DNA of 64,000 nt. Source: Dictyostelium discoideum (taxonomy: Eukaryota). Within the stretch, counting starts at the first letter, position 1. Every line of letters starts with the position of its first letter. Made by a program: the position numbers and the translations under genes. The notes below the pieces were generated by a model that did not search any database, was not told the origin of the DNA, and worked only from the letters and a program-made list of their open reading frames with translations. Below, in pieces: positions 10,746 through 61,345 of the stretch. The DNA is taken from assembly GCA_000004695.1 (NCBI GenBank), contig CM000151.3:224001-288000 (forward strand), read 5' to 3'.

Positions 10746-12540
10746 ATGACAAAGAAAACAACTACTTCCACAACTCTAACTAAAAAAAGACCATTAAATG
10801 AAGTAACAACCAAGAAATCAACCACAAACTTAACTAAAAAGAAACCATTAAAACAAGTTACAACTAAAAAACCAATAGAAGTTGAAAAACCAGCATGGAA
10901 TGATGAAGAAGATGAAGATGAAGATGAAAATGAAAATTCAGATGAAAAAATAAATAATACAATTGAAGAAGAAGAAGAAAAAGAAGAAAAAGTAGAAGAA
11001 AATGAAGAAGAAAAAATTAAAGAAAATGAAGAAGAAAAAGGAGATAATAATGAAGAAGAAGAGGATGAAAAAATTGTTAAAAAAACAAAAGTTTCAAATG
11101 AAAGTGCTTGGGCAGATGAAGAAGATGTTGGTAAATTTAAAAATAGATCTTTATTAAGTGTGTATGTATAAATTAATTTCTATTTCTATTAATTTAAATA
11201 AATATATATATATATATATATAAATAATATATTTATATTTTAACTTTTTTATTTTTTTTATTTTTTTTATTTTTTTTTTTAAAAAAAAAATAGAACACCA
11301 GAATGGGCAAAAATTAAAGAAAAAGGTGAAGATGATAAAGAAGAAGAAAATGTTTTTAATAGTAATAAGAATTTAGTTAATAATAATGAATTTAGAATTT
11401 TACAAGATAGAACTAGAAGTTCATTAACATCAAAAGTTACTGGTGTAGCATATGGTTCAAATGGTAATGTATTTATGGCAGATTCAAAAGGTATATTTAA
11501 AGTTTTTTCACGTGAAATCGAAGCTTCAAAAATATATGATAAACAATTATACGAGAGTAAATTTGTTGATTTCTCAATTACAAACCTTTACTATATTGAA
11601 AAATCAAATGAAGTAATTATAACCGGTCTTGATAAAGAGTATTATTTTACTTTTGATGTTAAATCTGAAAAAATTACAAAACGTCCATTAAGAGGTAAGT
11701 TTTTAAATAGATAAAATAAATAGATAAAATAAATAAAAAAAATAAATTATATTAATATTTTTTTATGGGGTTTTTTTTTAAAAAAAAAAAGTTGGTAAAA
11801 ATTATTTAAAAAAATCAGCAATTTCAGAAGAATACTTTTCAATTTCAGATTCTACAGGTAGAATTATGATGATATCGACAGCAAGTAAGACCATAGTTAA
11901 TGAGGTTAGAATGCCATCAGCAGAGATAACAACAATGAAATTCTCATCGAATGGAAAGATATTGTTGATTTCATCAGAGGGCTACATTTTTTGTTACAAT
12001 GTTGATAGTATGTCAATGATTCATAAATTTAAGGATTATGGTAACTTTGGATTGAATTCGATTACCACCATTACATGTTCACCAAATGGTAATTATTTAG
12101 TGACAGGTTCTCAATCTGGTATTATCAATAGTTATCGTTTCTCTGATTGTATGGAACAAACCACACCAAAACCATTGAAAATCATTGACTCGATCGTTTA
12201 TCCAATCACTGGTTTAGAGTTTAGTCCAAACAGTTTAATGCTTTTGGCAAGTAGTGAATTTGATAAATTATCTTCAAAATTAATTTTATATCCATCTCAT
12301 CAAACTTTTAAAAATTTTAAACTATCATGTAAAGTTGAATCATTTTGTTTCTCTCAAAATTCTCAAAGACTTTTAATTGGTGAAGAAGATGGTAGTTTAA
12401 CATTATTAAGATTTAAACCTATAATTATTAATAATAATAAAAATTTTAAAAATAATAATAAGAATAATAAAAAATATAATAATAATAAAAATAATAAAAA
12501 TAATAATAAAAATAAAAATAATAAAAATAAAAAATAAAAT
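10746..12540 (+). CDS. utp18: UTP18 (U3 snoRNP / SSU-processome WD-repeat protein) homolog. Three exons 10746-11161, 11294-11694 and about 11849-12540. The exon-3 acceptor is ambiguous: AGs at 11817, 11827 and 11848 are all in frame.
   Basis: PAWNDEEDEDEDE and SAWADEEDVGKF acidic motifs match the UTP18 N-terminal PAWVDEEDEDEE-type motifs. C-terminal WD region GIINSYRFSDCMEQTTPKPLKIID...GLEFSPNS...GEEDGSLTLLRF parallels human GVVNIYNQDSCLQETNPKPIKAI...SLTFNPTT...GNEKGKALMYRL. Donor GT|GTATGT at 11162 and acceptor AATAG|A at 11293 (phase 2). Donor AGAG|GTAAGT at 11695. The true ATG is 10746; the track start 10728 is TTG. Confidence 0.75.
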
Positions 12541-13817: not shown

Positions 13818-14738
13818 CTCATCGTTAAACAAGATCAAAAATATTGTTAAATATGTACAATTTAAAAACAATAGTAAGTAACTGAAAGGAATTTTTTTTT
13901 TTTTATTGTTATTGTTTTTTTTTAAATATAAATATGGAATATTATACCCCCCACTCACCAATAAACAAATAAAAAAAATTATTATTATTTTAAAATTATA
14001 CAAATATACACATGTGGGGTAAAATAACAATTCAAAAAAAACACACACAAACAAACCATTTTTTCATTTTTTATTATTATTTTTTTTTTTTATTTTTTTA
14101 ATTTATTTTTTTATTTTTTATTTTTTTTATTTCTTTTTTTAAATTTATTTATTTTTGAAACTCAATACGATACTATTTGATTTCACATAATAAAATTTTA
14201 TTTATTCAATTAATTTTTTTAAAATAAATAGTTTTTTTTTTTTTGGTTATTTTGGTTTTTTTTTGGTTTTTTTTTTCCAATTTCAAGATTAATAAATTAA
14301 ATTATTTAATTTAGAAAATACTACTTTGATATTTTACAATACTATTAAAATTAATTTTAATTTAGTAATTTTAAAATATTAAATTAATATTTTTAAAAAA
14401 AAAAAAAAATAATCCCTAAAAAATTCATTATTTATATATTTATTTATTTATTTATTTTTCATTTTATTTATTTCCAATTACTTTTTATAAAAAATTTTAA
14501 ATACAATAAAATTAATAAGAACAAACAAAAACAGGAAAAAGTAATAATAAAATTATTTTTACATATAAAATAATAAATTATGTAGGTATATATATTTATA
14601 TAATTTAAATACTATTAAAAAATTTTTATTGTAAAAATTTTAAATTATATCTTATTTAATGGTCAATAATATGTTTCAATACTAGTTAATTAATTTTTTA
14701 TAAAAATTTGGAATTAAAAAAAAAAAAAAAAAATTTTA

Positions 14739-14785
<47 letters not shown>

Positions 14786-15131
14786 TTGTTTTTGATATTA
14801 ATCAAATTAAATTTATTCATATTATCGAAATCCTATTTTTAATAAAAATAAAAAAAATCAATAGTAGATTGTTTTTAAAATTTACAAATTAAAATTGATG
14901 CAATTATAATAATAATTATAACAATAATAGTTTATATTCCAAACATTTATTTTATTTTTATTATTTTATTTTTTTAAAATTTTTAAATTTTTATTTATTT
15001 AAAAGAAAAAATAAAAATACTGTTTTTTCTTTGTTTGTGTTCTTATTCATATGTATTATCATTATTTTATTTTATTTTTTTTTTTTTTATTTTTTTACTA
15101 AAGATATTGTTATAAAAATCAATCTTAAAAT

Positions 15132-15171
<40 letters not shown>

Positions 15172-15230
15172 GAAACCAAATCAAACAATATTTTCTCTCC
15201 CTATCTTTATTCCAAACCCAACATCATCAA

Positions 15231-15320
15231 TTTATGACACACACTCACATATATACACTCTATATAACCCCTCACTCACACACAAAATTTTACACACACA
15301 CATACACACACACCCTCTCT
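15231..15320. promoter_or_regulatory. CA-rich element cluster (CAE-like) about 1.9 kb upstream of the kinase gene
   Basis: CACACACTCACATATATACACTC...CCCCTCACTCACACACAAAATTTTACACACACACATACACACACACCCTCTCT. Similar CA boxes at 13931-14050 and 16520-16600. Confidence 0.2.
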
Positions 15321-15834
15321 AAGTGAGAGAGAATATACTTATTTATACATATTCAAAACACAAAAACACATTTACTACCTATATATATCCAATTTAATTT
15401 ATATTAGCACATTTAAAAATATATTTAAAACATATTAATTAATAATAATTTAAAATTATTTATTTATTTTTTTATTTTTATGGAATTAAATAAAAAAATA
15501 ATAATAATTTTAATCATTAAATATTTAAATTAATTATTAAATTTCCAAACTAATCATTAATTGATTAAGCTATCATCAGTTAAATAAAAAAAATAATATT
15601 AATAATAAAAATAATAATAATAAAATTAATTTTTTTTTTTTATATAAAATTATAAATAAAATAAAATTATAATAAAATAATTTAAACTATTAATTTAAAG
15701 AAATTGTTTTTTTTTTTTTTTACATTTACAATTTATCTTTAACCTTATAAAAAAAAAACTTTTAAACTAATTATTATTGGTTTTTATTAATAGCTCAACA
15801 GGGTAAAAATTGTATTTCATTTTTTTACTATTTT

Positions 15835-15868
<34 letters not shown>

Positions 15869-16315
15869 GTTTGAACTTAAAGTTCATTGTTTGATATACA
15901 TATATATCATAGAGTTTTTTTTTTTTTTTTTTTTTTTTTGTGTAATTTTTGGTATTAGTATTTTCATTTGTTTTATATTATTTTTTTGAAAAAAATAAAA
16001 TAAAAAAAAAAATTGATCACAATAAAAAATTATAATTTTTTATTTAAAAAAAACATTATAATTTTATTTATTTATTAATTTTTTTCTATTGATTTTTTTT
16101 TTTTTTTTATTAAAACTTTTTTATTTATTTATTATTTATTTTTTATTTCAAGTTTGTTGTTTTATTTTTATTTTATTTTTTTAATTTATAAAGTATAAAA
16201 TATTAACCCTTAAAATAAATTGAAATAACAATAATAAAAAAAAAAAAAAAAAAAAAAAAAAACTTGATTTTTAGTTTAAAGAATTTCACACATAATCAAC
16301 AACTCTAGATTTGAA

Positions 16316-16373
<58 letters not shown>

Positions 16374-17164
16374 AAATAAATATTTAATAATCTCCAAAAA
16401 TACATCCTCACCCAAATTCCCATCATTTATTTAAAAAAAAAAAGATTAACGCATCCATTCAAAAAAAAATAATTAAATATTTGCCCACTACTTCGTTTTG
16501 ATTCTATTTTTAAAAAAATAACAGAAAAAAAAAAAAAAACACCACCACAACACAAACGAGCTCGTGAAAAAACACTCATACTCACACAAATTTTATAAAA
16601 CACAAAAAAAAAAAAAAAAATTAAATTTAAAATAATTAAAAAAATAAATAACAAAAATAACAAAAATAACAATAATTTTCTTCATTTTAAAATAATAATT
16701 ATATTCAATAACAAAAAAAAAATTATAATATAATATAAACATATTGACATTTTTTGATTAAAATCAAATTTGCTTATTCATTTTTAATTATTTTTTAAAT
16801 CAAAAAAAAAATCAAAAAAAAAAAAATTCAAAAAAAAAAAAAAAAATTAAATTAAAAAAAAAAAAAATATAAAAAAAAAAAAAAAAAAGAATTTTTTTTT
16901 TTAAAATTTTATTTTATTTTACATTTATCGCAAGGTGTGCTAATTTTTTTTTTACACTTTAAAATTATTTTATTTTTTTTTTTTTTTAAAAAAAAATAAA
17001 CATAAATCAAATATAAAAAAACTATCAACAAATATCAAATAAAACAAAAGTCAAGACATACAATTTGTGTATGAAAAAATAAAAAAATAAAAAATAGAAA
17101 ATAAAAAAATAAACTATTCAATTAGAAATATATATATATATAAAAACATTTAAAAAATAATAAA

Positions 17165-19803
17165 ATGATATCAATGGACTCAACCCCAACATTGAATTTT
17201 GAAACATCAGGTAAATATTATTATTTATTATTATTATTTATTATTTATTATTTATTATTTATTATTTATTATTTAAAATAGTAATAACAAAACAATAATA
17301 ATAGTGATAATAAAAAAAAAAAAAATAAAAAAAAATAAAAAAAAATAAAAAAAAAATAATCTTTCGTTTCGTTTTTTTTTTTTTTTTTTTTTTTTTTTTG
17401 GTTGATTAAGTGAAAAAATAACAATAATAAAAAAATAAAAAAAATAAAAAATAAATAAATTAAATTATAAATTAAATTATTAATTAAAAAAATTTTTTTT
17501 TTTTTTTTTTTATTATATTAAAAAAAATAATAATAATAATAAAAAAAAAAGATAATCTGGATGGATTACCGGATGGATCAAATGCATTTAAAATAAATAT
17601 AGATGATTTGGAATTTGGACAAGAAATTGGTAAAGGTGCATATGGTAAAATTTTTAAAGGTGAATATTTTGGAACACCAGTTGCAATTAAAGAGATATCA
17701 TTACAACCAAACGATGTGAAATATAAAGATTTAACCAAATTTATACAGAGAGAAGTAGCAATGTTAAGATTTAGTCATCCAAATTTAGTTCAATTCATTG
17801 GAGTATCGGAAAGAGGATCCAGTCTATACATTGTTACAGAGTTTGTACAGGGTGGTGATTTAGCTTATTATTTATTTAGAAATAAATTTGATGACACTCC
17901 AGAACAGTATATACACAGAAAAGTGAATGTCGGAAGTAGCTCAACACCCGACCTATCGGACCCGACCGTTCACAACGGCGAGAAGTTGGTGCAGTTGGCA
18001 TGGCCGTTGCGTATAAAGATAGCCTATGACGTTGCCTGCGCAATGGCGTATCTCCACTCGAGGAATGTGATACACCGTGATTTGAAATCCACAAATTTAT
18101 TAGTTGGCGACAATTGGAGAATCAAAGTTTGTGATATGGGATTCGCCAGAACTGCACAGGTCGGCGGAGGGTCAAGAGCAAAGCGAACAATGACCATCTG
18201 CGGAACCACAAATTGCATGGCGCCAGAGGTCGTGCTCGGCCAAGATTATAATGAGGCGTGCGATGTCTTCTCCTATGGTATTGTGCTATCGGAGATTATC
18301 ACTCGTATGGATACAACAAATAATCTTAGACCTTCGTCTTTAAAGTACGGTTTGGATGTCGATGTCTTATTACCATTGGTTCCAAAAGATTGTCCACCAC
18401 CATTTTTAAAATTGGTTCTAGATTGCACTGAATATGATCCAGACAATAGACCTACCTTTAAAGAAATCACAGAACGTTTAAAAAGTTTAACTAAAAAATT
18501 ATCAACACCTCACATTTTACCACCTTTAAGAGTTTTAGCACAATCACCATTAACATCACCAATTCAATCACCAATTTCAACTAAAAATCAATTTAATCCA
18601 AATTTATTTAAATCAATTGTACATAATAATCATAATCATAGTAGTAGTAGTAATAATAGTAGCGGATATAATAATAATAGTAATCATAATATAAATATAA
18701 CAGTAAATAGCATAAATATAAATAGTAGTAATATAAATAATAATAATAATAATAATAATATAAATAATAATAATAATAATAATAATAATATTAGTTTTTC
18801 AGGAAGACAAGAAGAGTTAATGTCACCAATATCAATGGGAGATGAAAGTGATTTAGATTCCGATGATGAGGATGATTCTTATACTTCTTCAGCTTCTTCA
18901 AGTAGATGTAATTCAAGAAACGGTAAAATTATAAATGGAGGAAAACAAATGGGTTATATAATAAAACATCATTATAGTAGTGATTTGGAATCATCGCCTA
19001 ATGGTAATAATATTAATAACAACAACAATAACAATAATAACAACAACAACAACAACAACAATAATAATAATAATAATAATAATAGCGGCAATAATGGAAT
19101 TTGTATAAATAGTTTAAGTTTAGGAGTATCGTCATCACCAATTCAAATTGGATTATCATCAAAATCACCAACACCACCATCAATGTCACCACCAACTTCT
19201 GTAAAATCTTATCATCCAAATAATAATAATAATAATATCAATATCAACAACACCAACACCAACATCAACAATAATAAAATTTCATCATCACCACCAGTTA
19301 AAAATTCACCAAAATCAAATAGATTTTCAAATGGATCATTAAAACAACAATTTCAACAATATCAACAACAACAACAACAATTATTTTTAAATATTAATGA
19401 AGATGATAAAGAATTGGAGGAATTATCAAAATCAATTGATGATACTTTTAGATTACATTTTTCACCTTTAAATATTTCACCAACTCAAAATAATAATAAC
19501 AATAATAACAATAGCAATAATAACAATGGTAATGTTAATCATAATCATCATCATTTAAATCAACATAGTCATATTAATGGTCATTTAATATCACCAACAA
19601 TTATATCTTCATCATCAACAACTTCTTCATCAACTTCAACACCTTCTTTAGTTAGTTTAACTTCATCTAGGGATCACCATCATCATCACATATCTGTAAC
19701 CTCTTCTCCAACTAATATCAAACCATTATCTTCTTCAATTGCCTCAAATTCTTCAGTCTTCACTCCGTTAGGTAGTGGATTAACAAGAACTGTACAAAGT
19801 TAA
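17165..19803 (+). CDS. protein kinase, TKL (tyrosine-kinase-like) group, with a long C-terminal Asn/Ser/Gln-rich low-complexity tail. Two exons 17165-17210 and 17552-19803.
   Basis: Exon 1 MISMDSTPTLNFETS, donor CAG|GTAAAT. 341-bp A/T intron. Acceptor AAAAAG|AT at 17551, phase 1. Kinase motifs: GKGAYGKIFKG (G-loop), VAIKE, HRDLKSTN, DMGFAR (DFG variant), CGTTNCMAPE, DVFSYGIVLSEI. The track start 17608 is TTG. Confidence 0.75.
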
Positions 19804-19818
19804 CTTCATGAAAAATAA

Positions 19819-19855
<37 letters not shown>

Positions 19856-20300
19856 CTATTTAAAAAAATTAATAATAAAAAAAAATAAAATAAAATAAAA
19901 AAAAAAAAAATAATAATAAAAAAATAAAATACAATGAAATAAAAACAAATATTTATTTATTTCAACATATAATATTTATTTATTTATTTTTACATTTTCT
20001 TTTTTTTTTTTTTTTACTTTATTTTTTTTTTTTTTTGTAATTATGATACCATTTCTTTAAAATTAAAAAATTATATCCCATTTACAATATTTTTAGAATA
20101 TTAAAAGACACACAAAATGACGATCATCACAAAATATTTTTTTTTTTTTTTTATTCCAAAACATAATTTTAAATTTCTTGTTTAATAAAGAAAAATTAGA
20201 ATTTATTATTATAATATTTTATATAATTATTTTATGGGGAAGAAAGAAATAAAAATTCGAAATCTTAATAGTATCTTCAGAAAATTATAAAAATTCAATG

Positions 20301-20395
20301 AACCGATCACAATGATCATGAATTGATTTTTTTATTTTTTTTTATTTTTTTTATTTTTTTTTTTTTGAAAAAGCTAAAAATATCTTTTTTTTTTT
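20301..20395. promoter_or_regulatory. conserved upstream module of surface-protein paralog 1 (GAACCGATCACAATGATCA ... AAAGCTAAAAATATCTTTTTTTT)
   Basis: The same two boxes recur upstream of paralog 2 (24363-24433). The second box recurs upstream of paralog 3 (28631-28655), 110-165 bp before the start codons. Confidence 0.35.
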
Positions 20396-20470
20396 TTTTT
20401 TAAGTAAATAATAAATTTATTTATTTTTTTTATTATGATGGTCAAAAAAAAAAAAAAAAAACAATTGACA

Positions 20471-20505
<35 letters not shown>

Positions 20506-20514
20506 ATAATAAAA

Positions 20515-23500
20515 ATGAAAATAAAATTTATAAATTATTTATTATTATTTTTTATTATTTTTTTAAATTATAATGGATTTGTAAAATCAGATTGTTATCA
20601 AGAACTCGATTTGGTTTTATCTAATTCTTGTAGAAATGGCCCATCAAAATTAGTTATTCATGAAAGTATTTATTCTTTTGAAAGTATTGAATTGACTCCA
20701 TTTGTTCAACCAAAATTACTAAATTATTATTCTTGGGATTTACAAGATGGAATTAATTATTTCATAAGTTACAGATACAAGAATTGTAGTAATATAATTT
20801 CTAAACCATTTGCTTCAAAAGGAATGTATTATAAACTTTTAGCGGAACCATTATGTTTAAATACATATATTCCAGTTAGAGTTTATAATTGGGGTGCAGG
20901 TGGTATAGAATATAATTTTTATAGTGTTCCATCAACGATTTGGGTTAATTCACAAAATGGTTTATGTAGTTTCCAATCACCAATTTCTCCACAAAGTTAC
21001 ACAAAAGGTGTATTAAATGATGGTGCACTCAAATTCGTTGGACCAACATGTGGTTTTAAAAATGGTACGATTACAATTGATTTAACCAAAGGTTATTCAA
21101 ATTATCATTTATTCCTTCAATCAGATTACCTTTTTGATAATGAAATTCAACCATCTTCAGAAGGTTTTTACAATGGATTGGAATCTGAAAATTACTCCCT
21201 TTTCGTTGATTCTGAACAGTGTGCTACTGAAAGAATTGAAATTTACATGAAGGATGTTTTCGCTCCATTGGAAATTGATTTTGAGAATGTTCCAGACTTA
21301 TTCCATAATTCAACAATTTCACTATCATTATCAAGTGGTAATAATGGAATTTTAAATAACACAAATATAAATGCTTTTGTAATACAATCAGAACGTTTAC
21401 TTACAGATTGGAACCATGTCCAAACCCAAATTACTTCAAATACTTATTATGGGTACGCTTATAATAAAGACTTTTCAACGGAAGCAGGTCAGACAAAATG
21501 TGTATATTCTGAAACACTTTTATTTGATAATTATTCCCCAAATTTCAATTTCACAATTTCAAAAAGTGAAAGTTGTTTAGAAAATGTTTCAATTACATTC
21601 TATCCATTACCAAATCAAAATATTAAAGTTTATGATTATAGCTCAGAGTCTGGTATTCCATTCTCAATGAAGGATAACGTTTTATCAGTTGAAAATAATT
21701 TAAATTTATGGATTTTTGATACCAATCAAAATTATGGTATTGTTCATTCAACTGTTTTTGATATACCATCTTATAAAATTATTGAAACTTCAAATGGAAT
21801 TGGATGTTGGAAAACTTATAATATTACAATTGTAAATTATGAAAATTATAAAAATCTAAGAATTCATTTTTATAATGAAAATAGTGAATTTAATTTTTAT
21901 CCAGTAGAAGGTGTATTTATAAATGTACCTGCATTGTATTACTATGTTACTTATAATGCTGGTGATTGTGAAACTGAATCATACTTTGTAATTGATAAAC
22001 TTGATAGAAATACTCCAATGGATAATGTAGTTTTGGAATTCAACACATTGGAAATTGGTAATTGTACACATGAAACTTCATTCATGGTGACTGTGAAATC
22101 AGTATTCGGTAGCTATTCAAAAACTATGCAAACATTCTATGATAAAGAATTTACTATATTCCTTCCAAATTGTTCATGTCAGATTAATGGCATTTACGTA
22201 GCACCCCGCTTAATTGATGGTGATTCACTTATTTATGAATTATTAACAGATCCAAATTGTAATTCTACTGATACTTTAATTAGATTTACTTCTCCTTCCC
22301 AAGATTATTCAATATCATCTGTATATCAAAATGGTGTTCAATTGCAATATTATAACAATTTAAATGGTTATTATATTAGTTCAGGTGAAAATAATATTAC
22401 AGTTAATTATGAAGGTGATCAATATTGTTATAGAACTGAAACAATAACTATTCAATCAGTTTATGAAGTACCATTGGTCCAAATTACACCAGTTTCAGAT
22501 TGTAGAAATCCAAATGGAAAAATTGAAATTTCAAATTTCCAAATTTTCTATAACTTAGAGCTTGTATTTAATTCAAATAGTAAACCAATTAATCAAGGCT
22601 TTATTGAGAATCTTGCATCCGGTACATATACAATTAATTATTACAGCAATCAAACATGTATAAATTCTATCACTGTTTATGTACCATCTTCAGAAAATGT
22701 AGCAGAAATTACAACATCAGTAATTAGCAATCCAACTTGTGATAATGGTCCTTTCTCTGATGGTATGATCAGAGTAGCTCTTAAATATGAAGGTAATCAA
22801 ATTAATAATTTCACAATCCAAAATCAAGATGCAGAATTTACCTACCTTAATGATGGTGTTTACCCAATAGCAGGTGTTGGTGTAAATAGTTTAACAATTT
22901 CATATCTTTCTTGTATATGGAAAAGAGATATTACAACAGTACTCAATAAGCCAAGCTTTACTCTGGAAAAAGTTTTTAATGATACTTGTGATCTACAAAG
23001 TGTTTATAAATTAGTATCAAGTAATCCAAATATTGAAATCGATTATATTGATTCATCAAATGGCTTTTCTTACCTAAATAACTATTATCTAGTATTTCAA
23101 AATAGTGGCGATTTTGGTTATTATGTGGCTTGGAATTCACGTTGCTATGAATATTACACTCAACAAATTATAATGGATAATTATGATAGGGATAGTAATG
23201 TTAAATATATAGATTATGAAATTGTAAAACCAGATAATTGTAATTCATTAAAAATCGATTTAATCATTACAAATATGAACAAATTCATTAGTTTAACCAT
23301 TGAAAATAAACTTCCAACACCAATTAATTCGACCCATTCAATTTTCAAAAATTTACCACCATCAAAAAGTTATGACATTTTATACACATTATTAAATGGT
23401 TGTGTCGCGTATCAAACTGTTGGTATAGATGAATTCAAATCTGGTTTTACTAAAGAAACAATAGATATCATTAAAACAAGTGATATTTGTTACTCTGGTA

Positions 23501-24096
23501 AAGCTTCAATACAATTATCAAATTTGGATTTTGATAATTATTATTATTATATTAAAAATTCAAATAGTTTAATGGGAGTTACTGATTCATACGATTCAAT
23601 TCAACCACAGCAAAGTGGTAATATTAATGGTACAATTTTACTTTCAAATTATAATCCTGGTAGTTATAAAATTTATCGTGGTTGTAAATCAATGGCAAAC
23701 TGTTATTTAGAAACAAATGTTGTTATTGAAAGTGAAGATCCAATAATTGAATCAATTTCAGTTACTGATTCATATGATAAATTAAATAATGGCACTGTTG
23801 AAATTAAATTGAATTATAATTCACCATATCCAATTAATTTTAAAATCATTGGTACTCAATTATCAAATCAAAATGGTAAATTTGGAAATTTAACACCAAA
23901 AACATACGAAGTTCAAGTTACATTAACTGATAGAATGTGTCCAGTCACTTTATCAAAATCATTTACAATTAATTTAAAAACATCACCACCAACACCATCA
24001 CCACAAGATCCATCTGATGAACTTTCAACATCCTCATTTGTTCAAGTAAATCTTTTATTCTTATCAATCTTAATTTTCACTATTTTTATTTTTTAA
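20515..24096 (+). CDS. large secreted cell-surface glycoprotein, paralog 1 (1193 aa). Signal peptide, then about 8 Cys-bracketed beta-repeat modules resembling SprB/HYR-type repeats, many N-glycosylation sequons, a Ser/Thr/Pro stalk and a hydrophobic C-terminal tail (probable GPI signal).
   Basis: MKIKFINYLLLFFIIFLNYNGFVKS signal. Modules such as PVSDCRNPNGKIEISN...NLASGTYTINYYSNQTCINSITVYVP and DSYDKLNNGTVEIKLN...GNLTPKTYEVQVTLTDRMCPVTLSKSFTINLK. C-terminus TSPPTPSPQDPSDELSTSSFVQVNLLFLSILIFTIFIF-stop. Intronless ORF. Confidence 0.7.
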   Translation: MKIKFINYLLLFFIIFLNYNGFVKSDCYQELDLVLSNSCRNGPSKLVIHESIYSFESIELTPFVQPKLLNYYSWDLQDGINYFISYRYKNCSNIISKPFASKGMYYKLLAEPLCLNTYIPVRVYNWGAGGIEYNFYSVPSTIWVNSQNGLCSFQSPISPQSYTKGVLNDGALKFVGPTCGFKNGTITIDLTKGYSNYHLFLQSDYLFDNEIQPSSEGFYNGLESENYSLFVDSEQCATERIEIYMKDVFAPLEIDFENVPDLFHNSTISLSLSSGNNGILNNTNINAFVIQSERLLTDWNHVQTQITSNTYYGYAYNKDFSTEAGQTKCVYSETLLFDNYSPNFNFTISKSESCLENVSITFYPLPNQNIKVYDYSSESGIPFSMKDNVLSVENNLNLWIFDTNQNYGIVHSTVFDIPSYKIIETSNGIGCWKTYNITIVNYENYKNLRIHFYNENSEFNFYPVEGVFINVPALYYYVTYNAGDCETESYFVIDKLDRNTPMDNVVLEFNTLEIGNCTHETSFMVTVKSVFGSYSKTMQTFYDKEFTIFLPNCSCQINGIYVAPRLIDGDSLIYELLTDPNCNSTDTLIRFTSPSQDYSISSVYQNGVQLQYYNNLNGYYISSGENNITVNYEGDQYCYRTETITIQSVYEVPLVQITPVSDCRNPNGKIEISNFQIFYNLELVFNSNSKPINQGFIENLASGTYTINYYSNQTCINSITVYVPSSENVAEITTSVISNPTCDNGPFSDGMIRVALKYEGNQINNFTIQNQDAEFTYLNDGVYPIAGVGVNSLTISYLSCIWKRDITTVLNKPSFTLEKVFNDTCDLQSVYKLVSSNPNIEIDYIDSSNGFSYLNNYYLVFQNSGDFGYYVAWNSRCYEYYTQQIIMDNYDRDSNVKYIDYEIVKPDNCNSLKIDLIITNMNKFISLTIENKLPTPINSTHSIFKNLPPSKSYDILYTLLNGCVAYQTVGIDEFKSGFTKETIDIIKTSDICYSGKASIQLSNLDFDNYYYYIKNSNSLMGVTDSYDSIQPQQSGNINGTILLSNYNPGSYKIYRGCKSMANCYLETNVVIESEDPIIESISVTDSYDKLNNGTVEIKLNYNSPYPINFKIIGTQLSNQNGKFGNLTPKTYEVQVTLTDRMCPVTLSKSFTINLKTSPPTPSPQDPSDELSTSSFVQVNLLFLSILIFTIFIF

Positions 24097-24587: not shown

Positions 24588-27500
24588 AGGAAAATAAAAT
24601 TTATAAATTATTAATTATTATTTTTTATTATTTTTTTAAATAAAAATAATTTTGTAAAATCAGATTGTGATCAAGAACTCGATTTGGTATTATATAATTC
24701 TTGTGGAAATAGCCCATCAAAATTAGTTATTCATGAAAATATTTATTCTTTTGAAAGTATTGAATTGACTCCATTTGTTCAACCAAAATTACTAAATTAT
24801 TATTCTTGGGATTTACAAGATGGAATTAATTATTTCATAAGTTACAGATACAAGAATTGTAGTAATATAATTTCTAAACCATTTGCTTCAAAAGGAATGT
24901 ATTATAAACTTTTAGCGGAACCATTATGTTTAAATACATATACTCCAATTATAGTTTATAATTGGGCTGCAGATGCTTCACCCTATAGTTTTTATAGTGT
25001 TCCATCAACAATTTGGGTTTATTCACAAAATGGTAATTGTAATTTCCAATCACCAATTTCTCCACAAAGCTACACAAAAGGTGTATTAAATGATGGTGCA
25101 CTCAAATTCGTTGGACCAACATGTGGTTTTAAAAATGGTACGATTACAATTGATTTAACCAAAGGTTATTCAAATTATCATTTATTCCTTCAATCAGATT
25201 ACCTTTTTGATAATGAAATTCAACCATCTTCAGAAGGTTTTTACAATGGATTGGAATCTGAAAATTACTTCCTTTTCGTTGATTCTGAACAGTGTGCTAC
25301 TGAAAGAATTAAAATTTACTTGAAAGATGTTTTCGCTCCATTGGAAATTGATTTTGAGAATGTTCCAGATTTATTCCATAATTCAACAATTTCATTATCA
25401 TTATCAAGTGGTAATAATGGAATTTTAAATAACACAAATTCAAATGCATTTGTTGGAAATACACAGCGTTTACTTGCAGATTGGAACCATGCACAAACCC
25501 CAATTATATCAAGAACTGTTTATGGGTATACTTATAATAAAGACTTTTCAACAGAGGTTGGCCAGTTACAATGTAATTTTTTCGAAACACTTTCATTTGA
25601 TAATTATTCCCCAAATTTCAATTTCACAATTTCAAAAAGTGAAAGTTGTTTAGAAAATGTTTCAATTACATTCTATCCATTACCAAATCAAAATATTAAA
25701 GTTTATGATTATAGCTCAGAGTCTGGTATTCCATTCTCAATGAAGGATAACGTTTTATCAGTTAATAATAATTTAAATTTATGGATTTTTGATACCAATC
25801 AAGGGTATGGTATTGTTCATTCAACTGTTTTTGATATACCATCTTACAAAATTATCGAAACTTCAAATGGAATTGGATGTTGGAAAACTTATAATATTAC
25901 TATTGTAAATTATGAAAATTATAAAAATCTAAGAATTCATTCATATAATGAAAATAGTGAATTTAATTTTTATCCAGTAGAAGGTGTATTTATAAATGTA
26001 CCTGCATTGTATTACTATGTTACTTATAATGCTGGTGATTGTGAAACTGAATCATTCTTTGTAATCGATAAACTTGATATAAATACTCCAATGGATGGTG
26101 TGACTGTTGAATACACTACATTGAAAGTTGGTAATTGTACACATGAAACTTCATTCATGGTGACTGTGAAATCAGTATTCGGTAGCTATTCAAAAACTAT
26201 GCAAACATTCTATGATAAAGAATTTACTATATTCCTTCCAAATTGTTCATGTCAGATTAATGGCATTTACGAAGCACCCGGCTTAATTGATGGTGATTCA
26301 CTTATTTATGAACTTTTAACAGATCCAAATTGTAATTCCACTGGCACTTTAATTAGATTTACTTCTCCTTCCCAAGATTATTCAATATCATCTGTATATC
26401 AAAATGGTGTTCAATTGCAATATTATAACAATTTAAATGGTTATTATATTAGTTCAGGTGAAAATAATATTACAGTTAATTATGAAGGTGATCAATATTG
26501 TTATAGAACTGAAACAATAACTATTCAATCAGTTTATGAAGTACCATTGGTCCAAATTACACCAGTTTCAGATTGTAGAAATCCAAATGGAAAAATTGAA
26601 ATTTCAAATTTCCAAATTTTCTATAACTTAGAGCTTGTATTTAATTCAAATAGTAAACCAATTAATCAAGGCTTTATTGAGAATCTTGCATCCGGTACAT
26701 ATACAATTAATTATTACAGCAATCAAACATGTATAAATTCTATCACTGTTTATGTACCATCTTCAGAAAATGTAGCAGAAATTACAACATCAGTAATTAG
26801 CAATCCAACTTGTGATAATGGTCCTTTCTCTGATGGTATGATCAGAGTAGCTCTTAAATATGAAGGTAATCAAATTAATAATTTCACAATCCAAAATCAA
26901 GATGCAGAATTTACCTACCTTAATGATGGTGTTTACCCAATAGCAGGTGTTGGTGTAAATAGTTTAACAATTTCATATCTTTCTTGTATATGGAAAAGAG
27001 ATATTACAACAGTACTCAATAAGCCAAGCTTTACTCTTGAAAAAGTTTTTAATGATACTTGTTCACTACCAAATGTTTATAAATTAGTATCAAGTAATCC
27101 AAATATTGAAATCGATTATATTGATTCACCAAATAACTTTTTTTATCAAAATAACTATTATCTAGTATTTCAAAATGTTGGTAATTCTAGTTATCAAGTG
27201 GGCTGGAATTCACGTTGTGAAGAACATTACTATCAACAAATAATAATGGATAATTATGATAAAAATAGTAATGTTAAATATATAGATTATGAAATTGTAA
27301 AATCAGATAATTGTAACTCATTAAAAATTGATTTAATCATTACAAATATGAACAAATTCGTTAGTTTAAATATTGAAAATAAACTTCCAACACCAATTAA
27401 TTCGACCCATTCAATTTTCAAAAATTTACCACCATCAAAAAGTTATGACATTTTATACACATTACTAAATGGTTGTGCAGGGTATCAAACTGTAGGTGAA

Positions 27501-28181
27501 GATGAACTCAAATCTGGTTTTACTAAAGAAACAATGGATATCATAAAAATAAATGATCTTTGTTACTCTGGTAAAGCTTCAATACAATTATCAAATTTGG
27601 ATTTTGATAATTATTATTATTATATTAAAAATTCAAATAGTTTAATGGGAGTTTCTGATTCATTTGACCCAATTCAACCACAACAAATTAGTAGTAATGG
27701 TACTATTTTACTTTCAAATTATAATCCTGGTAGTTATAAAATTTATCGTGGTTGTAAGTCAATGGCAAACTGTTATTTAGAAACAAATGTTGTTATTGAA
27801 AGTGAAGATCCAATAATTGAATCAATTTCAGTTACTGATTCATATGATAAATTAAATAATGGTACTGTTGAAATTAAATTAAATTATAATTCATCAAATC
27901 CAATTAATTTTAAAATCATTGGTACTCAATTATCAAATCAAAATGGTAAATTTGGAAATTTAACACCAAAAACATACGAAGTTCAAGTTACATTAACTGA
28001 TAGAATGTGTCCAATCACTCTATCAAAATCATTTACAATTAATTTAAAAACATCACCAACACCATCACCAACCCCATCACCACAAGATCCATCTGATGAA
28101 CTTTCAACATCATCATTTGTTCAAGTTAATCTATTATTCTTATCAATCTTAATTTTCACTATTTTTATTTTTTTAATTTAA
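24588..28181 (+). pseudogene. surface glycoprotein paralog 2 (about 90% nt identity to paralog 1). The ancestral start codon is mutated ATG->AGG (24588-24590) and there is an in-frame TAA at 24612-24614. The remaining ~1165 codons are open.
   Basis: Direct alignment of AATAAAAATGAAAATAAAATTTATAAATTATTTATTATT (copy 1) with AATAAAAAGGAAAATAAAATTTATAAATTATTAATTATT (copy 2). The track 'M' at 24684 is TTG. The first in-frame ATG is about 70 codons downstream (SKGMYYK), past the signal peptide. Confidence 0.55.
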
Positions 28182-28761: not shown

Positions 28762-31700
28762 ATGAAATTTATAAAATATTTATTAATTTTATTTTTAATA
28801 TTAAAAATTAATTATTTTGTAGAATCAGGAGTAGATTGTCAAAAAAATACAGAGTATTTCGTTGAAAATTCATGTGGCAAAAATCCATCAAAATTAAACA
28901 TCAACACTGATATTTACTATTTTGAAAGTATTGGAATAACACCATATTCCCCACCTGTTTATAATGAATCTACAACTAATTACTTTTGGTATTTGAAGGA
29001 TGGTATTGAATATACATTTAGTTATAGATACAAAGGTTGTCAAAATATTAAATCACATTCAATTGTTTCACAAGGAATGTATTACCAACTTTTATCACAA
29101 CCATTGTGTCCAAATACCTATTTCAATTATACAATTTATAATTCAGGAGAGTTTGGTGGAAATACAAATTATTACTCTACCCCACAAAATATTATAAGTT
29201 CAAATTATAATGGTAGTTGTACTATTAATATTTTAATTACACCACTTAGTAATTCCAAAGGTGCATTCCAAAGCAGTGCTGCTAAATACACCTATCCAAC
29301 TTGTGGTTTTAATAATGGTACGATTTCAGTTGATTTAACAAAAGGTTATTCAAATTGTCACTTATTCAGCCAATTTGACACGAGTTTTCTATATGAAATT
29401 GAACCATCATCGCCATGTTTTTACAGTGGGTTGGAGTCAAATTATTATTACCTTTTCGTTGATTCTAAAGAATGTGCTACTGAAAGATTATCAATTCAAT
29501 TATTCAATGTTTTCACTCCATTGGAAATTACTTTTGAAAATGTTCCAGATTATAATCAAAATTCAATAGTATCATTATCATTATCAAGTGGTGACAATGG
29601 AATTTTAAATAAAACTAATTCATTTGCAACTGTGGGTGGCACTGGACCTGATCCATTAAGTACTTGGAGCCATAAAGAAACTAAAATTACTTCAACCACA
29701 CAATTTGGTTACTTTTATAATAAAGACTTTTCAACAGATCCATTAAAAGTTATATGTTCTTTTAATGATGGTTTTGAACCGCAAAAATTTAATCCAAATT
29801 TTAATTTCACAGTTACAAAAAGTGATACTTGTTTAGAAAATGTAACTATTACATTTTATCCATTACCAAGTCAAACATTTGTTGTTCATGATTATATTTT
29901 AGGAAATATATTACCATTGACAAATAATGTTCTATCGGTTCAATATAATAAATTTTTACATATTTCAGAGATTTCAAGTAATTCAGAAAGATATTATTCA
30001 ACAGCTTTTTATGCTCCTATTTATAGAGTTGTTGAAACTTCAAATGGAATTGGTTGTTGGAAAACCTATAATATTACAATTGGTGAATATCAAATTTATT
30101 CAAATCTTACAATGAAAGTATATGATGGAGATGAATATGAATATATTTTTTATCCAATTGAAGGAGTTTTCGTTAATGTACCTGCAAATTATTTTTATAT
30201 CCATTATAAAGTTAAAGATTGTGAAGTTGAATCAATAATTATGATTGATAAATATGAAGAAATTACTCCAATGGATGATGTAAAAATGGATATCAGTATA
30301 TATGAACTTGGTAATTGTACACATGAAACTTCAATTTTAGTAAATATCGATACAGTTTTTGGTAACTTTTCTAAAGTTTATTCATCATTTTCAAATGGTT
30401 ATTTCTCTTTTTACCTTCCAAATTGTTCCTGTAATATTGGTTTCTACTATTCTATTCCACCATTAATCGATAGTGAAACATTTTCTTATGGTTTTATCAG
30501 TGATCTAGATTGTAATTCCACTGGTACTGTTATTCAATTATTAGGTTCAAATGGTAATACTATTCAAGAAGTTTATTCAAATGGTATTAAATTAATAGTA
30601 AATAATGACGTTGATACTGATTTTGCATATAATATTGGGCCTGGTGAAAATAATGTTACAATTAAATATTCAAATACAAAAGGAACTTGTTACAAATCTC
30701 AAATGATTAACATACAATCACCTTATGAAGTACCATTAGTTGAAGTCACACCAGTTATAGATTGTGATAGTTCTGATGGTAAAATTTCAATTTCAAATTA
30801 TATGAACTTCTATTCATTGGATATTATTATTGATTCATCCACTATACCAATTAATTCAGGTTTAGTTAGTAATCTTCCAACTGGTACTTACACAATTGTT
30901 TATGGAAACAGTGGATCTTGTGCAAATTCTATCGATGTTTATGTACCATCTTCAGAACAGTATGTAGAAATTACAACATCTGTAATTTCCCATCCAACTT
31001 GTGGTGAACAATCATTGAATGGTGATGGTAAAGTCAATGTAACTTTAAAGGTTTTAGGAATTAAAAAAAATACATTCTATATTCAAAATCAAAATCAAAT
31101 ATCATCTCTAACATTCTCAGATGGTGGTGTTTATATTGCTGCTGCTCCAGGTTTAAATACTTTATCAATATCCTATGGTGGTTGTATTTGGAATAGAGAT
31201 GTTAATACAACAATTTCCAAACCAACATTCTCATTTGAAAAGATTTACAATGACACTTGTTTATCATCAGTATATTATAAATTAATAAATAATAATACAA
31301 ATATAGCAATTAATTCCATCACTTCACCTTATACCTTATATAGTTACCAAAATGAATACTACACTCAAATGGCCACAAATTTAATCTATCCATACACTGT
31401 CACATGGAATACCTATTGCACAGAAACATTTTACCAAGAATTTACTTTTGACACTCCTTTTAATTATTATTCAAATTATATCCAATATGAAATTGTAAAA
31501 GCTGATAATTGTAATTCATTCAAAATTGATATCATCATTAAAAATATGAATACTTTTCAAAAGGTAACCCTTTCAAGTAAATATCCAACACCAATTAATT
31601 CGACTCATGCAATTTTTAAAAATTTACCACCATCTATTTCTTATGATATTTCATTCACATTATTTGATGGTTGCTCTGGTACTGAAATGGTTGGTTATCA

Positions 31701-32367
31701 ACAACTTTCAAATGGTAATACTAAAGAGACAATCGATATCATCAAGGTGAACGACATTTGTAACTCTGGTAAAGGTTCTATCCAATTATCAAATATGGAT
31801 ACCTCCAATCATTATTACTATGTTAAAACATTTTCAGATTATTACGTTTACACAAGTTACCCAATTCAACCAACTACTAATGATAATGGTACAATTATTA
31901 GTCTACTTTCAAATTTACCAGTTGGTAGTTACAATATAACTAGAAATTGTAAATCAATAACAAACTGTTATATAGAAACAAAGGTTGTTATTGAAAATAA
32001 AGACCCAATAATTGAATCAATTTCAGTTACTGATTCATATGATAAATTAAATAATGGTACTGCTGAAATTAAATTAAACTATAACTCAACATATCCAATT
32101 AATTTCAAAATTATTGGTACTCAATTATCCAATCAAAATGGTATATTTTCAAATTTACCACCAAAAACATATGAAGTTCAAGTTACATTAACTGATAGAA
32201 TGTGTCCAATCACAATTTCACAATCATTTACAATCAATTTTAAAACATCACCAACACCACCACCACTACCACAAGATCCATCTGATGAACTTTCAACATC
32301 TTCATTTATTCAATTAAATATTTTATCATTATTATTAATTTCAATTTTCACTATTTTTATTTTATAG
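28762..32367 (+). CDS. surface glycoprotein paralog 3 (1201 aa). A diverged member with the same architecture and the same C-terminal stalk and hydrophobic tail.
   Basis: MKFIKYLLILFLILKINYFVESG signal. Collinear motifs: TCGFNNGTISVDLTKGYSNCHLF, VIDCDSSDGKISISN...NLPTGTYTIVYGNSGSCANSIDVYVP, DSYDKLNNGTAEIKLN. C-terminus TSPTPPPLPQDPSDELSTSSFIQLNILSLLLISIFTIFIL-stop. Confidence 0.7.
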   Translation: MKFIKYLLILFLILKINYFVESGVDCQKNTEYFVENSCGKNPSKLNINTDIYYFESIGITPYSPPVYNESTTNYFWYLKDGIEYTFSYRYKGCQNIKSHSIVSQGMYYQLLSQPLCPNTYFNYTIYNSGEFGGNTNYYSTPQNIISSNYNGSCTINILITPLSNSKGAFQSSAAKYTYPTCGFNNGTISVDLTKGYSNCHLFSQFDTSFLYEIEPSSPCFYSGLESNYYYLFVDSKECATERLSIQLFNVFTPLEITFENVPDYNQNSIVSLSLSSGDNGILNKTNSFATVGGTGPDPLSTWSHKETKITSTTQFGYFYNKDFSTDPLKVICSFNDGFEPQKFNPNFNFTVTKSDTCLENVTITFYPLPSQTFVVHDYILGNILPLTNNVLSVQYNKFLHISEISSNSERYYSTAFYAPIYRVVETSNGIGCWKTYNITIGEYQIYSNLTMKVYDGDEYEYIFYPIEGVFVNVPANYFYIHYKVKDCEVESIIMIDKYEEITPMDDVKMDISIYELGNCTHETSILVNIDTVFGNFSKVYSSFSNGYFSFYLPNCSCNIGFYYSIPPLIDSETFSYGFISDLDCNSTGTVIQLLGSNGNTIQEVYSNGIKLIVNNDVDTDFAYNIGPGENNVTIKYSNTKGTCYKSQMINIQSPYEVPLVEVTPVIDCDSSDGKISISNYMNFYSLDIIIDSSTIPINSGLVSNLPTGTYTIVYGNSGSCANSIDVYVPSSEQYVEITTSVISHPTCGEQSLNGDGKVNVTLKVLGIKKNTFYIQNQNQISSLTFSDGGVYIAAAPGLNTLSISYGGCIWNRDVNTTISKPTFSFEKIYNDTCLSSVYYKLINNNTNIAINSITSPYTLYSYQNEYYTQMATNLIYPYTVTWNTYCTETFYQEFTFDTPFNYYSNYIQYEIVKADNCNSFKIDIIIKNMNTFQKVTLSSKYPTPINSTHAIFKNLPPSISYDISFTLFDGCSGTEMVGYQQLSNGNTKETIDIIKVNDICNSGKGSIQLSNMDTSNHYYYVKTFSDYYVYTSYPIQPTTNDNGTIISLLSNLPVGSYNITRNCKSITNCYIETKVVIENKDPIIESISVTDSYDKLNNGTAEIKLNYNSTYPINFKIIGTQLSNQNGIFSNLPPKTYEVQVTLTDRMCPITISQSFTINFKTSPTPPPLPQDPSDELSTSSFIQLNILSLLLISIFTIFIL

Positions 32368-35749: not shown

Positions 35750-35786
<37 letters not shown>

Positions 35787-35915
35787 AAAGAATCAAATAT
35801 AAATTTAAAAGAAATTAAAATTAAAATCGGAGATGATGAATATATTCCTGAATTAAATAATATTAATAATCCATATTTCACAACAGTAATAAAGAAATTA
35901 CCAAAAAAAAATTAA
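34017..35915 (+). CDS. member A (632 aa) of a tandemly arrayed Dictyostelium-specific family. N-terminal F-box-like motif (DYEILKSLINYLL ... NEILNYILVSKKWYNFIS), acidic linker and a conserved C-terminal domain.
   Basis: Intact intronless ORF. Family-conserved blocks: ETVKIFKIFKGKNLIY, YSALFDPNNSGQQVESIKV, VEARHLIKVNQFENLHSITIPINSFQILSNLSEEMGF, IERIEFDCCGLLNINTFSNLL, PLTSIRHYKI, NPYFTTVIKKLPK. Confidence 0.7.
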
Positions 35916-61189: not shown

Positions 61190-61297
61190 ATGTTAACAAA
61201 TAAACAAATAAAAACAGATAACAATAAAATATTTCAAGATATTATTGATTTTGAAATATTAAAATCAATAATCAATTATTTATTAATTAGCAAAAAT

Positions 61298-61345
<48 letters not shown>

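Follow-up and report, generated by a model that had tools for sequence, protein, structure and literature searches.

A GC3-rich patch in a LISK-family kinase gene of Dictyostelium discoideum, consistent with local and lineage-specific GC-biased fixation

Tracts of GC-biased gene conversion (gBGC), or "biased clustered substitutions", occur at recombination hotspots in mammals, birds and yeast, and many human accelerated regions are examples. Within the genus Dictyostelium, higher GC around lost introns has been interpreted as biased gene conversion (Ma et al. 2015, PMC4683709), and the correlation between chromosome size and GC in D. discoideum has been listed as -0.94 (Pessia et al. 2012, PMC5635611). 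For D. discoideum, five analyses run across the genome (local GC correlations, rho vs GC, proximal and distal chromosome halves, intron/exon GC, and intron SNP frequency spectra) gave no evidence of gBGC, and introns across the genome did not have a higher derived frequency of AT→GC polymorphisms (De Oliveira et al. 2021, PMC8321536). Crossovers in this organism, which lacks Spo11, tend toward low-G+C sequence according to coarse data (Bloomfield et al. 2019, PMC6369745). The patch that we describe here resembles gBGC tracts in being a sub-kilobase, lineage-specific cluster of almost exclusively AT→GC changes with a faster local rate, apparently indifferent to codon quality and with one conservative amino-acid change in the same direction. 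However, its host is extremely AT-rich (22% GC), lacks Spo11, has tested negative for gBGC genome-wide (PMC8321536) and is reported to cross over preferentially in low-GC DNA (PMC6369745), and the patch lies wholly within an exon, with no noncoding sites at which the effect could be seen.

The window (the whole 64-kb stretch of DNA that was analysed) lies on chromosome 2 of D. discoideum AX4, where it is placed by an open reading frame at 20515-24096 that is 100% identical to DDB_G0271238. The patch falls within a forward-strand gene predicted to encode a TKL-group kinase of the LISK family. Exon 1 (17165..17210; MISMDSTPTLNFETS, phase 1) starts with ATG and is followed by a GTAAAT donor at 17211, the sole intron (17211-17551) ends with an AG acceptor at 17550-17551, and exon 2 (17552..19803) carries the whole kinase domain and a long Asn/Ser-rich C-terminal tail, up to the stop codon. 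The spliced product is in frame and 765 aa long. Its catalytic domain (17608..18480, + strand), of the LISK/LIMK-like type, matches Pfam PK_Tyr_Ser-Thr (PF07714; residues 35-325, E=8.5e-53), the LIMK1 kinase domain is the closest solved structure (top PDB match, E=1e-42), and the orthologues carry the annotation "LISK family protein kinase". Although it is like LISK (LIMK/TESK-like) TKL kinases in these respects, it has no LIM or PDZ domain, ends in a long low-complexity tail, contains an insert of ~35 residues between subdomains V and VIa (17890..17994, + strand; DDTPEQYIHRKVNVGSSSTPDLSDPTVHNGEKLVQ) and reads DMG rather than DFG (18133..18141, + strand). The initial annotation had noted the insert as unusual, together with the DMG variant, within its supposed mosaic segment, but both are family traits. 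The insert is specific to the dictyostelid orthogroup, since it is present in Acytostelium, Cavenderia, Synstelium and P0001 and missing from the other LISK paralogues in the alignment; DMG is common to Cavenderia and all six group-4 genomes compared below, while Acytostelium, Synstelium and P0001 have DFG.

A sharp GC-rich patch with flipped codon usage had been described between 17900 and 18300 of this gene, and recomputation bore this out. GC over the interval is 0.486, and the 401-bp window of highest GC in the entire 64 kb starts at 17892 (0.491), compared with a mean of 0.217 (sd 0.068) for such windows and 0.419 for the best one outside the patch, at 3175. In windows of 20 codons, in-frame GC3 climbs from 0.0-0.25 to 0.55-0.85 over ~17917-18290 and then drops back; the first two codon positions show no such rise, with GC at 0.33-0.62 throughout. 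The core of the patch (17914..18300, + strand) has 49% GC and a GC3 of 0.56, peaking at 0.85, vs a GC3 of ~0.13 in every other ORF of the window. Codon usage is clearly not uniform along sliding windows either: across 1220 windows of 40 codons from 18 ORFs the mean GC3 is 0.127 (sd 0.084), and the highest value is 0.725 in the patch vs 0.425 in any other ORF. Codons ending in C (38) and in G (34) are up about equally, and the patch includes rare ones (GCG three times, CCG twice, TCG three times, and CCC, GGG, AGG and CGA). When codons that make up less than 5% of their family elsewhere in the window are counted as rare, 19 of the 129 patch codons qualify, vs 17 of 620 in the remaining gene. 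CCG, GCG and TCG had been listed in the initial annotation and do occur in frame; CGG, listed with them, does not occur there as an in-frame codon. Its mention of flanking exons does not fit the gene structure, as the patch and both flanks lie within exon 2. On the - strand, the patch is overlapped by three ORFs of 40-72 aa (17876-18094, 17953-18075 and 18024-18218, together spanning 17876..18218) and are explained by the codon flip, as by-products of GC enrichment. They had been said to appear only there, but others of 84, 65 and 41 aa lie at 17484-17738, 18273-18470 and 18791-18916, respectively.

We compared six group-4 genomes, one per taxon: AX4, D. cf. discoideum Y (GCA_054859205.1), D. 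cf. discoideum Z (GCA_054859235.1), D. citrinum, D. dimigraforme and D. firmibasis. A protein search with the kinase domain gave distant orthologues only, the close ones being present in the assemblies yet not among the matches, and the orthologous loci of the five relatives were located via a neighbouring gene. The locus from a second D. discoideum assembly begins at window position 18999 and just misses the patch. In the five relatives the kinase domain is 97-99% identical and gap-free (over the patch, D. dimigraforme differs from AX4 at three residues, Val→Ile, Ala→Ser and Val→Ile), and the segment, insert included, is collinear with orthologues across Dictyostelia. GC3 in the patch and in the rest of the domain, respectively, is 0.56 and 0.14 in AX4, 0.49 and 0.13 in cf. 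Y, 0.31 and 0.10 in cf. Z, 0.36 and 0.20 in D. citrinum, 0.16 and 0.10 in D. dimigraforme, and 0.32 and 0.22 in D. firmibasis. About a third of the silent sites in the patch differ among these close relatives. The DNA of the Acytostelium and Cavenderia orthologues has no matching local GC3 pattern. The patch is not of old, conserved origin.

Ancestrally, most third positions of the patch were A or T, and AT→GC changes built up over successive branches, in two tracts. On the lineage to AX4 there were 31 AT→GC (W→S) changes in the patch vs a single GC→AT (S→W) change, divided 18:0 on the stem shared with cf. Y and 13:1 on the terminal AX4 branch; the corresponding counts are 3:1 on the cf. Y terminal branch and 2:3 in cf. 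Z. The W→S rate per ancestral W third site is 0.356 in the patch vs 0.048 in the flanks of the same domain (Fisher p=1e-10); the S→W rate is 0.026 in the patch and 0.087 in the flanks, a difference that is not significant. The 31:1 ratio also departs from 70:32 in a 9.5-kb three-genome background (p=7e-4), and the unpolarised class gives 23:2 vs 67:99 (p=7e-7). Nearly all AT→GC changes in the patch are synonymous transitions. Among the 33 polarised changes, 17 are T>C and 12 are A>G (29 of 33), transitions outnumber transversions 14 to 3 at four-fold sites, and the synonymous rate is up about seven-fold. One replacement, a conservative Ile→Val at 17968, is likewise AT→GC. The derived G/C states are for the most part confined to AX4/cf. 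Y, with site patterns across the six genomes of SSWWWW (15 sites) and SWWWWW (7 sites). Decay of an ancestrally GC-rich patch was considered and rejected, since 13 sites would then have lost GC to AT in parallel in cf. Y and cf. Z, whose branches are very short.

Polarised positions and the six-genome alignment place the derived AT→GC synonymous transitions in one hot tract at 17895..18075 and another at 18159..18270 (both + strand), with a weaker shoulder past the second, up to ~18445. Between them, the 83 bp from the HRD catalytic loop to DMG-FARTA (18076..18158, + strand) show zero change among AX4, cf. Y and cf. Z. The tracts are wholly exonic and of conversion-like length (~110-180 bp), the cluster as a whole stays below the 1-2 kb expected of conversion tracts, the flanks are normal, and outside the tracts W→S and S→W counts are balanced. 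In exons 2-3 of the WD-repeat gene nearby (11289-12537), W→S vs S→W counts point the same way (AX4 branch 14:0, stem 4:0, cf. Y 5:0, cf. Z 5:3), and alignable noncoding sites of good quality in the vicinity are balanced (9:7 and 3:2). The patch is best read as a hotspot superimposed on a weaker AT→GC trend, which a conserved exon nearby shows in the AX4/cf. Y clade. It shares with the lost-intron cases (PMC4683709) the genus and a local exonic rise in GC that was attributed there to biased gene conversion, and the introns of the Cavenderia orthologue map to ~17853/4, outside the first tract, and ~18219/20, in the middle of the second. However, gap-free tblastn alignments show that all six group-4 genomes are already intron-free at these sites, so that any such loss came before the recent AT→GC burst, and we rejected intron loss as the cause.

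The explanation that we favour, at about even confidence, is that the patch may be an in-situ, still active and lineage-specific hotspot of GC-biased fixation, some 400-550 bp long, whose driver would most likely be gBGC, a link to conversion that we infer. The patch would have formed in place, by a local process that fixes A/T→G/C changes at silent sites along the branches leading to AX4. Heteroduplex between alleles would have formed repeatedly at a conversion hotspot here, its repair would favour G/C, and AT→GC variants would gain in fixation chance, however good or poor the codons that they produce. In that case the patch would serve no function of its own, and its rare codons and antisense ORFs would be side effects. 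Both the published genome-wide negative result (PMC8321536) and the occurrence of crossovers in low-G+C sequence without Spo11 (PMC6369745) count against gBGC, and the unchanged 83-bp middle and off-centre hottest point are not what a single break site would leave in the simplest case. One possible but rather doubtful extension is that D. discoideum has strong gBGC confined to narrow, mostly exonic hotspots, which 5-kb windows and intron-based tests would miss; under that reading the patch would be the clearest case of an exon-focused AT→GC drive begun in the AX4/cf. Y clade. Regarding the initial annotation as a whole, the codon flip is real and evolutionarily recent, with a gene-conversion-type process as the leading explanation, but a mosaic or foreign origin did not hold up.

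Selection in the D. discoideum lineage for codons in this part of the mRNA that are rare or end in G/C, through slower inter-lobe translation for folding, mRNA stability or expression, is unlikely, even though a fixation bias with W→S raised and S→W lowered is expected under selection too. Codon use is reported to be under selection in D. discoideum (De Oliveira et al. 2021, PMC8321536), and an AT→GC excess that extends to the neighbouring exon, with alignable noncoding DNA free of it, also fits exon-specific selection. The patch spans the insert as well as the catalytic loop and activation segment and, like the rare-codon clusters thought to tune co-translational folding, puts a block of genome-rare codons between the kinase lobes. 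Unlike those clusters, it is not conserved: relatives with the same protein, including a sister species, lack it (D. dimigraforme, GC3 0.16) or have it weakly (0.31-0.36), and more distant orthologues have no matching pattern. In addition, C- and G-ending codons rise together, and A>G changes yield CCG, GCG and TCG, among the rarest codons of the window, which argues against translational selection. For selection on mRNA structure, another early suggestion, there was no signal: folding gave z-scores of -1.0 for the sense and -1.3 for the antisense strand, and an Rfam search of 14000-21000 gave no match at E≤1. A local mutational bias is likewise improbable. Here damage or repair synthesis would produce A:T→G:C transitions, for example through error-prone repair at a fragile or break-prone site, and this could operate in a mostly haploid, clonal organism with no need for heterozygotes. 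The predominance of A>G and T>C on both strands and the seven-fold synonymous rate are in line with it; the 14:3 excess of transitions fits the usual mutational input, but equally a transition-specific mutational process. However, error-prone synthesis on an AT-biased mutational background should also add S→W changes, so the S→W rate, which is not raised and is if anything lower (not significantly), counts against it. There is also no enrichment of WA motifs of the polymerase-eta type (43% in the changes vs a 43% baseline), and the activity continued along three or more branches. Mutagenesis of the axenic lineage in the laboratory was rejected: nitrosoguanidine yields GC→AT changes, the wrong direction, and the wild relative cf. 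Y has most of the patch too.

A very unlikely source is an unsampled, GC-richer template for the same protein, such as a retrocopy, a cryptic paralogue or another lineage, acting through repeated ectopic conversion or introgression. The clustering of changes in two tracts of conversion-like length would suit such a donor, and a near-identical hidden paralogue is conceivable given that the protein search missed even true close orthologues. However, the derived states arose stepwise on the stem, AX4 and cf. Y branches rather than as one block, and the AX4-specific changes are directional (13 W→S, 1 S→S, 1 S→W and 0 W→W), unlike the mixture from a diverged donor. Most derived G/C states occur only in AX4/cf. 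Y among the sampled genomes, and the next-best Dictyostelium paralogues among the matches listed are 36-46% identical. A DNA-level BLAST check of the segment, as initially proposed, was run by blastn against plasmids, E. coli genomes and phages and returned no match. The idea of conversion from a GC-rich paralogue, a foreign donor or a recent acquisition finds no support in a segment that encodes the same orthologous protein, 97-99% identical and without gaps, down to the orthogroup insert. A mosaic block does not agree with GC3 graded from 0.16 to 0.56 over six genomes and single-site AT→GC changes on three branches, and in place of a distinct phylogenetic affinity the segment aligns with the same orthologues as its flanks, its derived states being found in no other sampled species. 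We consider it highly improbable that GC-rich sequence is kept for the sake of a second element overlapping the gene, whether a structured RNA, an antisense gene or a DNA-level signal. The three antisense ORFs speak for one, but their conservation failed, with 1-4 internal stop codons in the same frames of cf. Z and all three outgroups (D. citrinum, D. dimigraforme and D. firmibasis); the Rfam and folding results and the divergence at silent sites also stand against it. A tRNA scan of the whole 64-kb window gave nothing. An assembly chimera or contamination in the reference, raised initially as well, has nothing in its favour except the sharp change in composition, and its probability is negligible. 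The segment keeps the reading frame and the collinearity of the kinase domain, it has no plasmid, E. coli or phage match, and the independently assembled genome of a close relative (GCA_054859205.1) has most of the same G/C states, which refutes a chimera.

For annotation, the message is that the patch is native; it is not contamination, horizontal transfer or an antisense gene. In work on codon usage, D. discoideum has served as a "gBGC-free" reference for telling selection apart from neutral forces, and the patch contrasts with the published genome-wide absence of evidence for gBGC (PMC8321536). The 31:1 exon cluster, together with the weaker signal in the neighbouring exon, suggests that GC-biased fixation acts locally in this species. 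If so, narrow GC3 islands would record where conversion hotspots have been, would have to be masked when codon usage or dS is analysed, and would offer concrete test sites for macrocyst crosses. Meiotic recombination in D. discoideum starts without Spo11 (PMC6369745), and if narrow exonic gBGC is real, such patches could be used for mapping these Spo11-independent starts.

The initial annotation described a sharp patch of about 50% GC within the kinase catalytic domain, and this was confirmed: GC of 17900-18300 is 0.486, and the 401-bp window with the highest GC of the 64 kb (0.491) begins at 17892, compared with 21.8% for the window as a whole, a mean of 0.217 over 401-bp windows and 0.419 in the next best region. 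The effect lies at third codon positions, GC at positions 1 and 2 being flat across the patch. Along the kinase frame, third-position GC (GC3) rises from 0.0-0.25 to 0.55-0.85 in the patch and then drops back, which is the flip that sliding windows had been expected to reveal. Over 40-codon windows (n = 1220 from 18 ORFs; mean 0.127, sd 0.084), the peak in the patch is 0.725, with all other ORFs at or below 0.425. The patch contains codons that the rest of the window uses very rarely (GCG, CCG, TCG, CCC, GGG, AGG and CGA); the earlier list was correct for CCG, GCG and TCG, but CGG is unused in the patch. At third positions the patch has 38 C, 34 G, 31 A and 26 T. Flanking sequence does have the low GC3 typical of the region, but the patch and its flanks share one exon rather than lying in separate ones.

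The spliced model of the kinase gene (+ strand) comprises exon 1 (17165-17210), a GT..AG intron (17211-17551) and exon 2 (17552-19803), and its product is 765 aa, with a protein kinase domain at residues 35-325 (PF07714, E=8.5e-53). Among solved structures the LIMK1 kinase domain is the nearest, and the orthologues from Cavenderia and other amoebozoans carry LISK-family kinase annotations. An insert and a DMG motif had also been noted in the patch. The insert is found in Acytostelium subglobosum, Cavenderia fasciculata, Synstelium polycarpum and a fourth EukProt dictyostelid and is missing from other LISK paralogues in the alignment; it is a trait of this kinase orthogroup. Likewise, DMG is common to the window kinase, Cavenderia and all close relatives, with DFG in the remaining three distant orthologues (Acytostelium, Synstelium and the fourth dictyostelid). 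The patch aligns to dictyostelid orthologues as its flanks do, and blastn of 17900-18320 alone gave no match in plasmids, E. coli genomes or phages. Collinear alignment, the orthogroup-wide insert and the lack of a donor match in these collections speak clearly against a foreign or mosaic origin. In the DNA of the distant orthologues of Acytostelium and Cavenderia there is no matching local GC3 pattern. Introns interrupt the kinase domain twice in Cavenderia (~17853/4 and ~18219/20 in window coordinates; about 2440-2500 and 2855-2921 in its locus, L002) and once in Acytostelium, near residue 58 (2261-2318 in locus L001); all are absent from AX4 and its five close relatives.

The kinase protein search listed distant orthologues and not close ones, and the close loci were reached via the neighbouring gene. 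Since close orthologues do exist in the assemblies, absence from that search is no evidence of absence. The relatives are two D. cf. discoideum genomes, GCA_054859205.1 (L003; cf. Y) and GCA_054859235.1 (L004; cf. Z), and the outgroups D. citrinum (L005), D. dimigraforme (L006) and D. firmibasis (L007); orthologue regions include L003 2549-9518, L004 6632-9295 and L005 4159-6671. The called gene in GCA_054859205.1 (1995 aa) extends over the kinase match and onwards as far as the neighbour, and so appears to be a fusion of the kinase with a downstream DDB_G0271238-like gene. Kinase residues 16-360 align without gaps at 97-99% identity in all five relatives. Patch GC3 is graded among the six genomes and strongest in AX4: 0.56 (0.14 in the rest of the domain), against 0.49 (0.13) in cf. 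Y, 0.31 (0.10) in cf. Z, 0.36 (0.20) in D. citrinum, 0.16 (0.10) in D. dimigraforme and 0.32 (0.22) in D. firmibasis.

Polarising changes against cf. Z and the three outgroups showed that the patch arose in place: its silent sites underwent AT→GC substitutions that are recent, run in one direction and cluster together. AT→GC and GC→AT changes numbered 18 and 0 on the stem of AX4 and cf. Y, 13 and 1 on the AX4 terminal branch, 3 and 1 on that of cf. Y, and 2 and 3 on that of cf. Z. Along the path to AX4, AT→GC changes per ancestral A/T third site were 0.356 in the patch versus 0.048 over the remainder of the domain (Fisher p=1e-10), and the reverse rate was 0.026 versus 0.087. A three-genome alignment of 9.5 kb gave a background of 70:32 on the AX4 branch, versus 31:1 in the patch (p=7e-4); for the unpolarised class in which cf. 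Z has A/T and both AX4 and cf. Y have G/C, the patch gave 23:2 and sequence elsewhere 67:99 (p=7e-7). The AX4-terminal polarity requires the two closest genomes only, and parallel GC→AT loss would not undermine this result. We rejected an ancestral GC-rich patch decaying elsewhere, which could only work with numerous losses occurring in parallel along very short branches.

Two tracts hold the derived changes, one at 17895-18075 and the other at 18159-18270, and a weaker shoulder runs on to ~18445. AX4, cf. Y and cf. Z are identical over the 83 bp that separate the tracts, from the HRD loop to DMG-FARTA. The Cavenderia intron site at ~18219/20 falls in the middle of the second tract. Polarised changes (n=33) include 17 T>C and 12 A>G, and four-fold sites carry 14 transitions and 3 transversions. 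One change, a conservative Ile→Val at 17968, is likewise AT→GC.

The bias extends to neighbouring exons. In exons 2-3 (11289-12537) of a WD-repeat gene (10746-12537), AT→GC to GC→AT counts are 14:0 in AX4, 4:0 on the stem and 5:0 in cf. Y, so that all 23 polarised strong/weak changes in this clade are AT→GC; cf. Z gives 5:3. The last exon has a GC3 of 0.24 in AX4 versus 0.12-0.15 in the relatives. These changes suggest a lineage-wide AT→GC trend in exons. A MeaB/MMAA-type GTPase ORF (3011-3913, 903 bp) is 100% identical to a D. cf. discoideum protein; of its 36 nucleotide differences between AX4 and cf. Y, nearly all at third positions, 31 fall in 3217-3613, where nearly all exchange A/T and G/C in an unpolarised comparison. 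In GC content this region ranks second in the window, after the patch (GC 0.41-0.42, GC3 up to 0.43), and it may be another hot tract, weaker than the patch. At alignable noncoding sites the two directions are balanced (9:7 and 3:2). Compared with the other conserved exon sequence examined, the patch is ~12-16x hotter on the stem and 3-4x on the AX4 branch, and it marks the high end of a broader trend that, in the AX4/cf. Y clade, also shows in a neighbouring conserved exon; this trend is drawn from one polarised gene, the WD-repeat gene, and the unpolarised MMAA region.

Other features of the window were also recorded. Long Asn/Gln tracts are present. Downstream of the kinase lies a tandem triplet of ~1200-aa paralogues (20515-24096, 24684-28181 and 28762-32367), the first of which is 100% identical to DDB_G0271238 on chromosome 2 of AX4. 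They have hydrophobic N-terminal leaders and C-terminal ends, their returned homologues have no Pfam domain recorded, and they diverge rapidly, being 82% identical to one D. cf. discoideum genome and 77% to the other. On the AX4 branch, AT→GC changes in the first copy outnumber GC→AT changes by 50 to 22, an excess possibly affected by conversion between copies. A Cys/Asp-rich repeat protein (32636-33478, +; units CDDG.ACTTDSCSK; local GC 0.34) has an antisense frame of 219 aa open across its repeats (32809-33468, -) and many off-register blastn matches in relatives. Five ~630-730-aa paralogues of one Dictyostelium-specific family (34017-35915, 36178-38361, 55349-57436, 58899-60827 and 61190-63112) surround a polyketide synthase fragment (43349-48586) and a 1029-aa ORF (51867-54956). 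Upstream of the kinase, a 4.6-kb gene-free region of 8-12% GC holds short C/A-rich tracts with strong negative GC skew (15180-15340 and ~16530-16600, e.g. cacacactcacatatatacac...acacacacaccctctc), at which no tRNA or Rfam match was found.

We infer that a GC-biased fixation process made the patch, for which biased gene conversion at a local hotspot is the likeliest candidate. This reading draws on the direction and clustering of the changes, their persistence across several branches, the fact that codons ending in C and in G rose equally, even the rarest ones, and the finding of no conserved function. Against it, a genome-wide negative for GC-biased gene conversion has been published for D. 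discoideum (PMC8321536), crossovers favour low-GC DNA (PMC6369745), the patch centre is unchanged, and nearby alignable noncoding DNA lacks the bias. Local selection for G/C or rare codons is an unlikely alternative. A local A:T→G:C mutational bias also seems unlikely; the changes have no flanking-base preference (A/T 5' neighbours 43%, baseline 43%).

Conversion from an unsampled GC-rich copy is improbable; derived G/C states are mostly unique to AX4 and cf. Y, so no sampled species resembles a donor. It is very improbable that an overlapping RNA or antisense element explains the patch. The suggestion of selection on mRNA structure found no support, as the patch folds no more stably than shuffles (z = -1.0 sense, -1.3 antisense) and 14000-21000 has no Rfam match. 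All three antisense ORFs are open in AX4 only, with two also open in cf. Y; stop codons interrupt the frames in the other genomes, and the ORFs are a by-product of lost A/T-rich stop triplets. An artefact is hardly credible: an independent assembly also has the patch, which rules out the chimeric assembly that had been raised.

Hotspots of GC-biased gene conversion in mammals, birds and yeast show biased, clustered substitutions, and the patch resembles them in both respects, the AT→GC excess and the clustering. A further parallel is the GC increase that exons show around lost introns in Dictyostelium (PMC4683709), but the Cavenderia intron sites are already empty in all six genomes of the group and this link is therefore unproven. 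The patch is a real, native feature without evident function, best classed with a type of evolutionary footprint that is already known but was not expected in this organism. As such, it provides a concrete site for asking whether D. discoideum has GC-biased gene conversion and where its Spo11-independent recombination starts.
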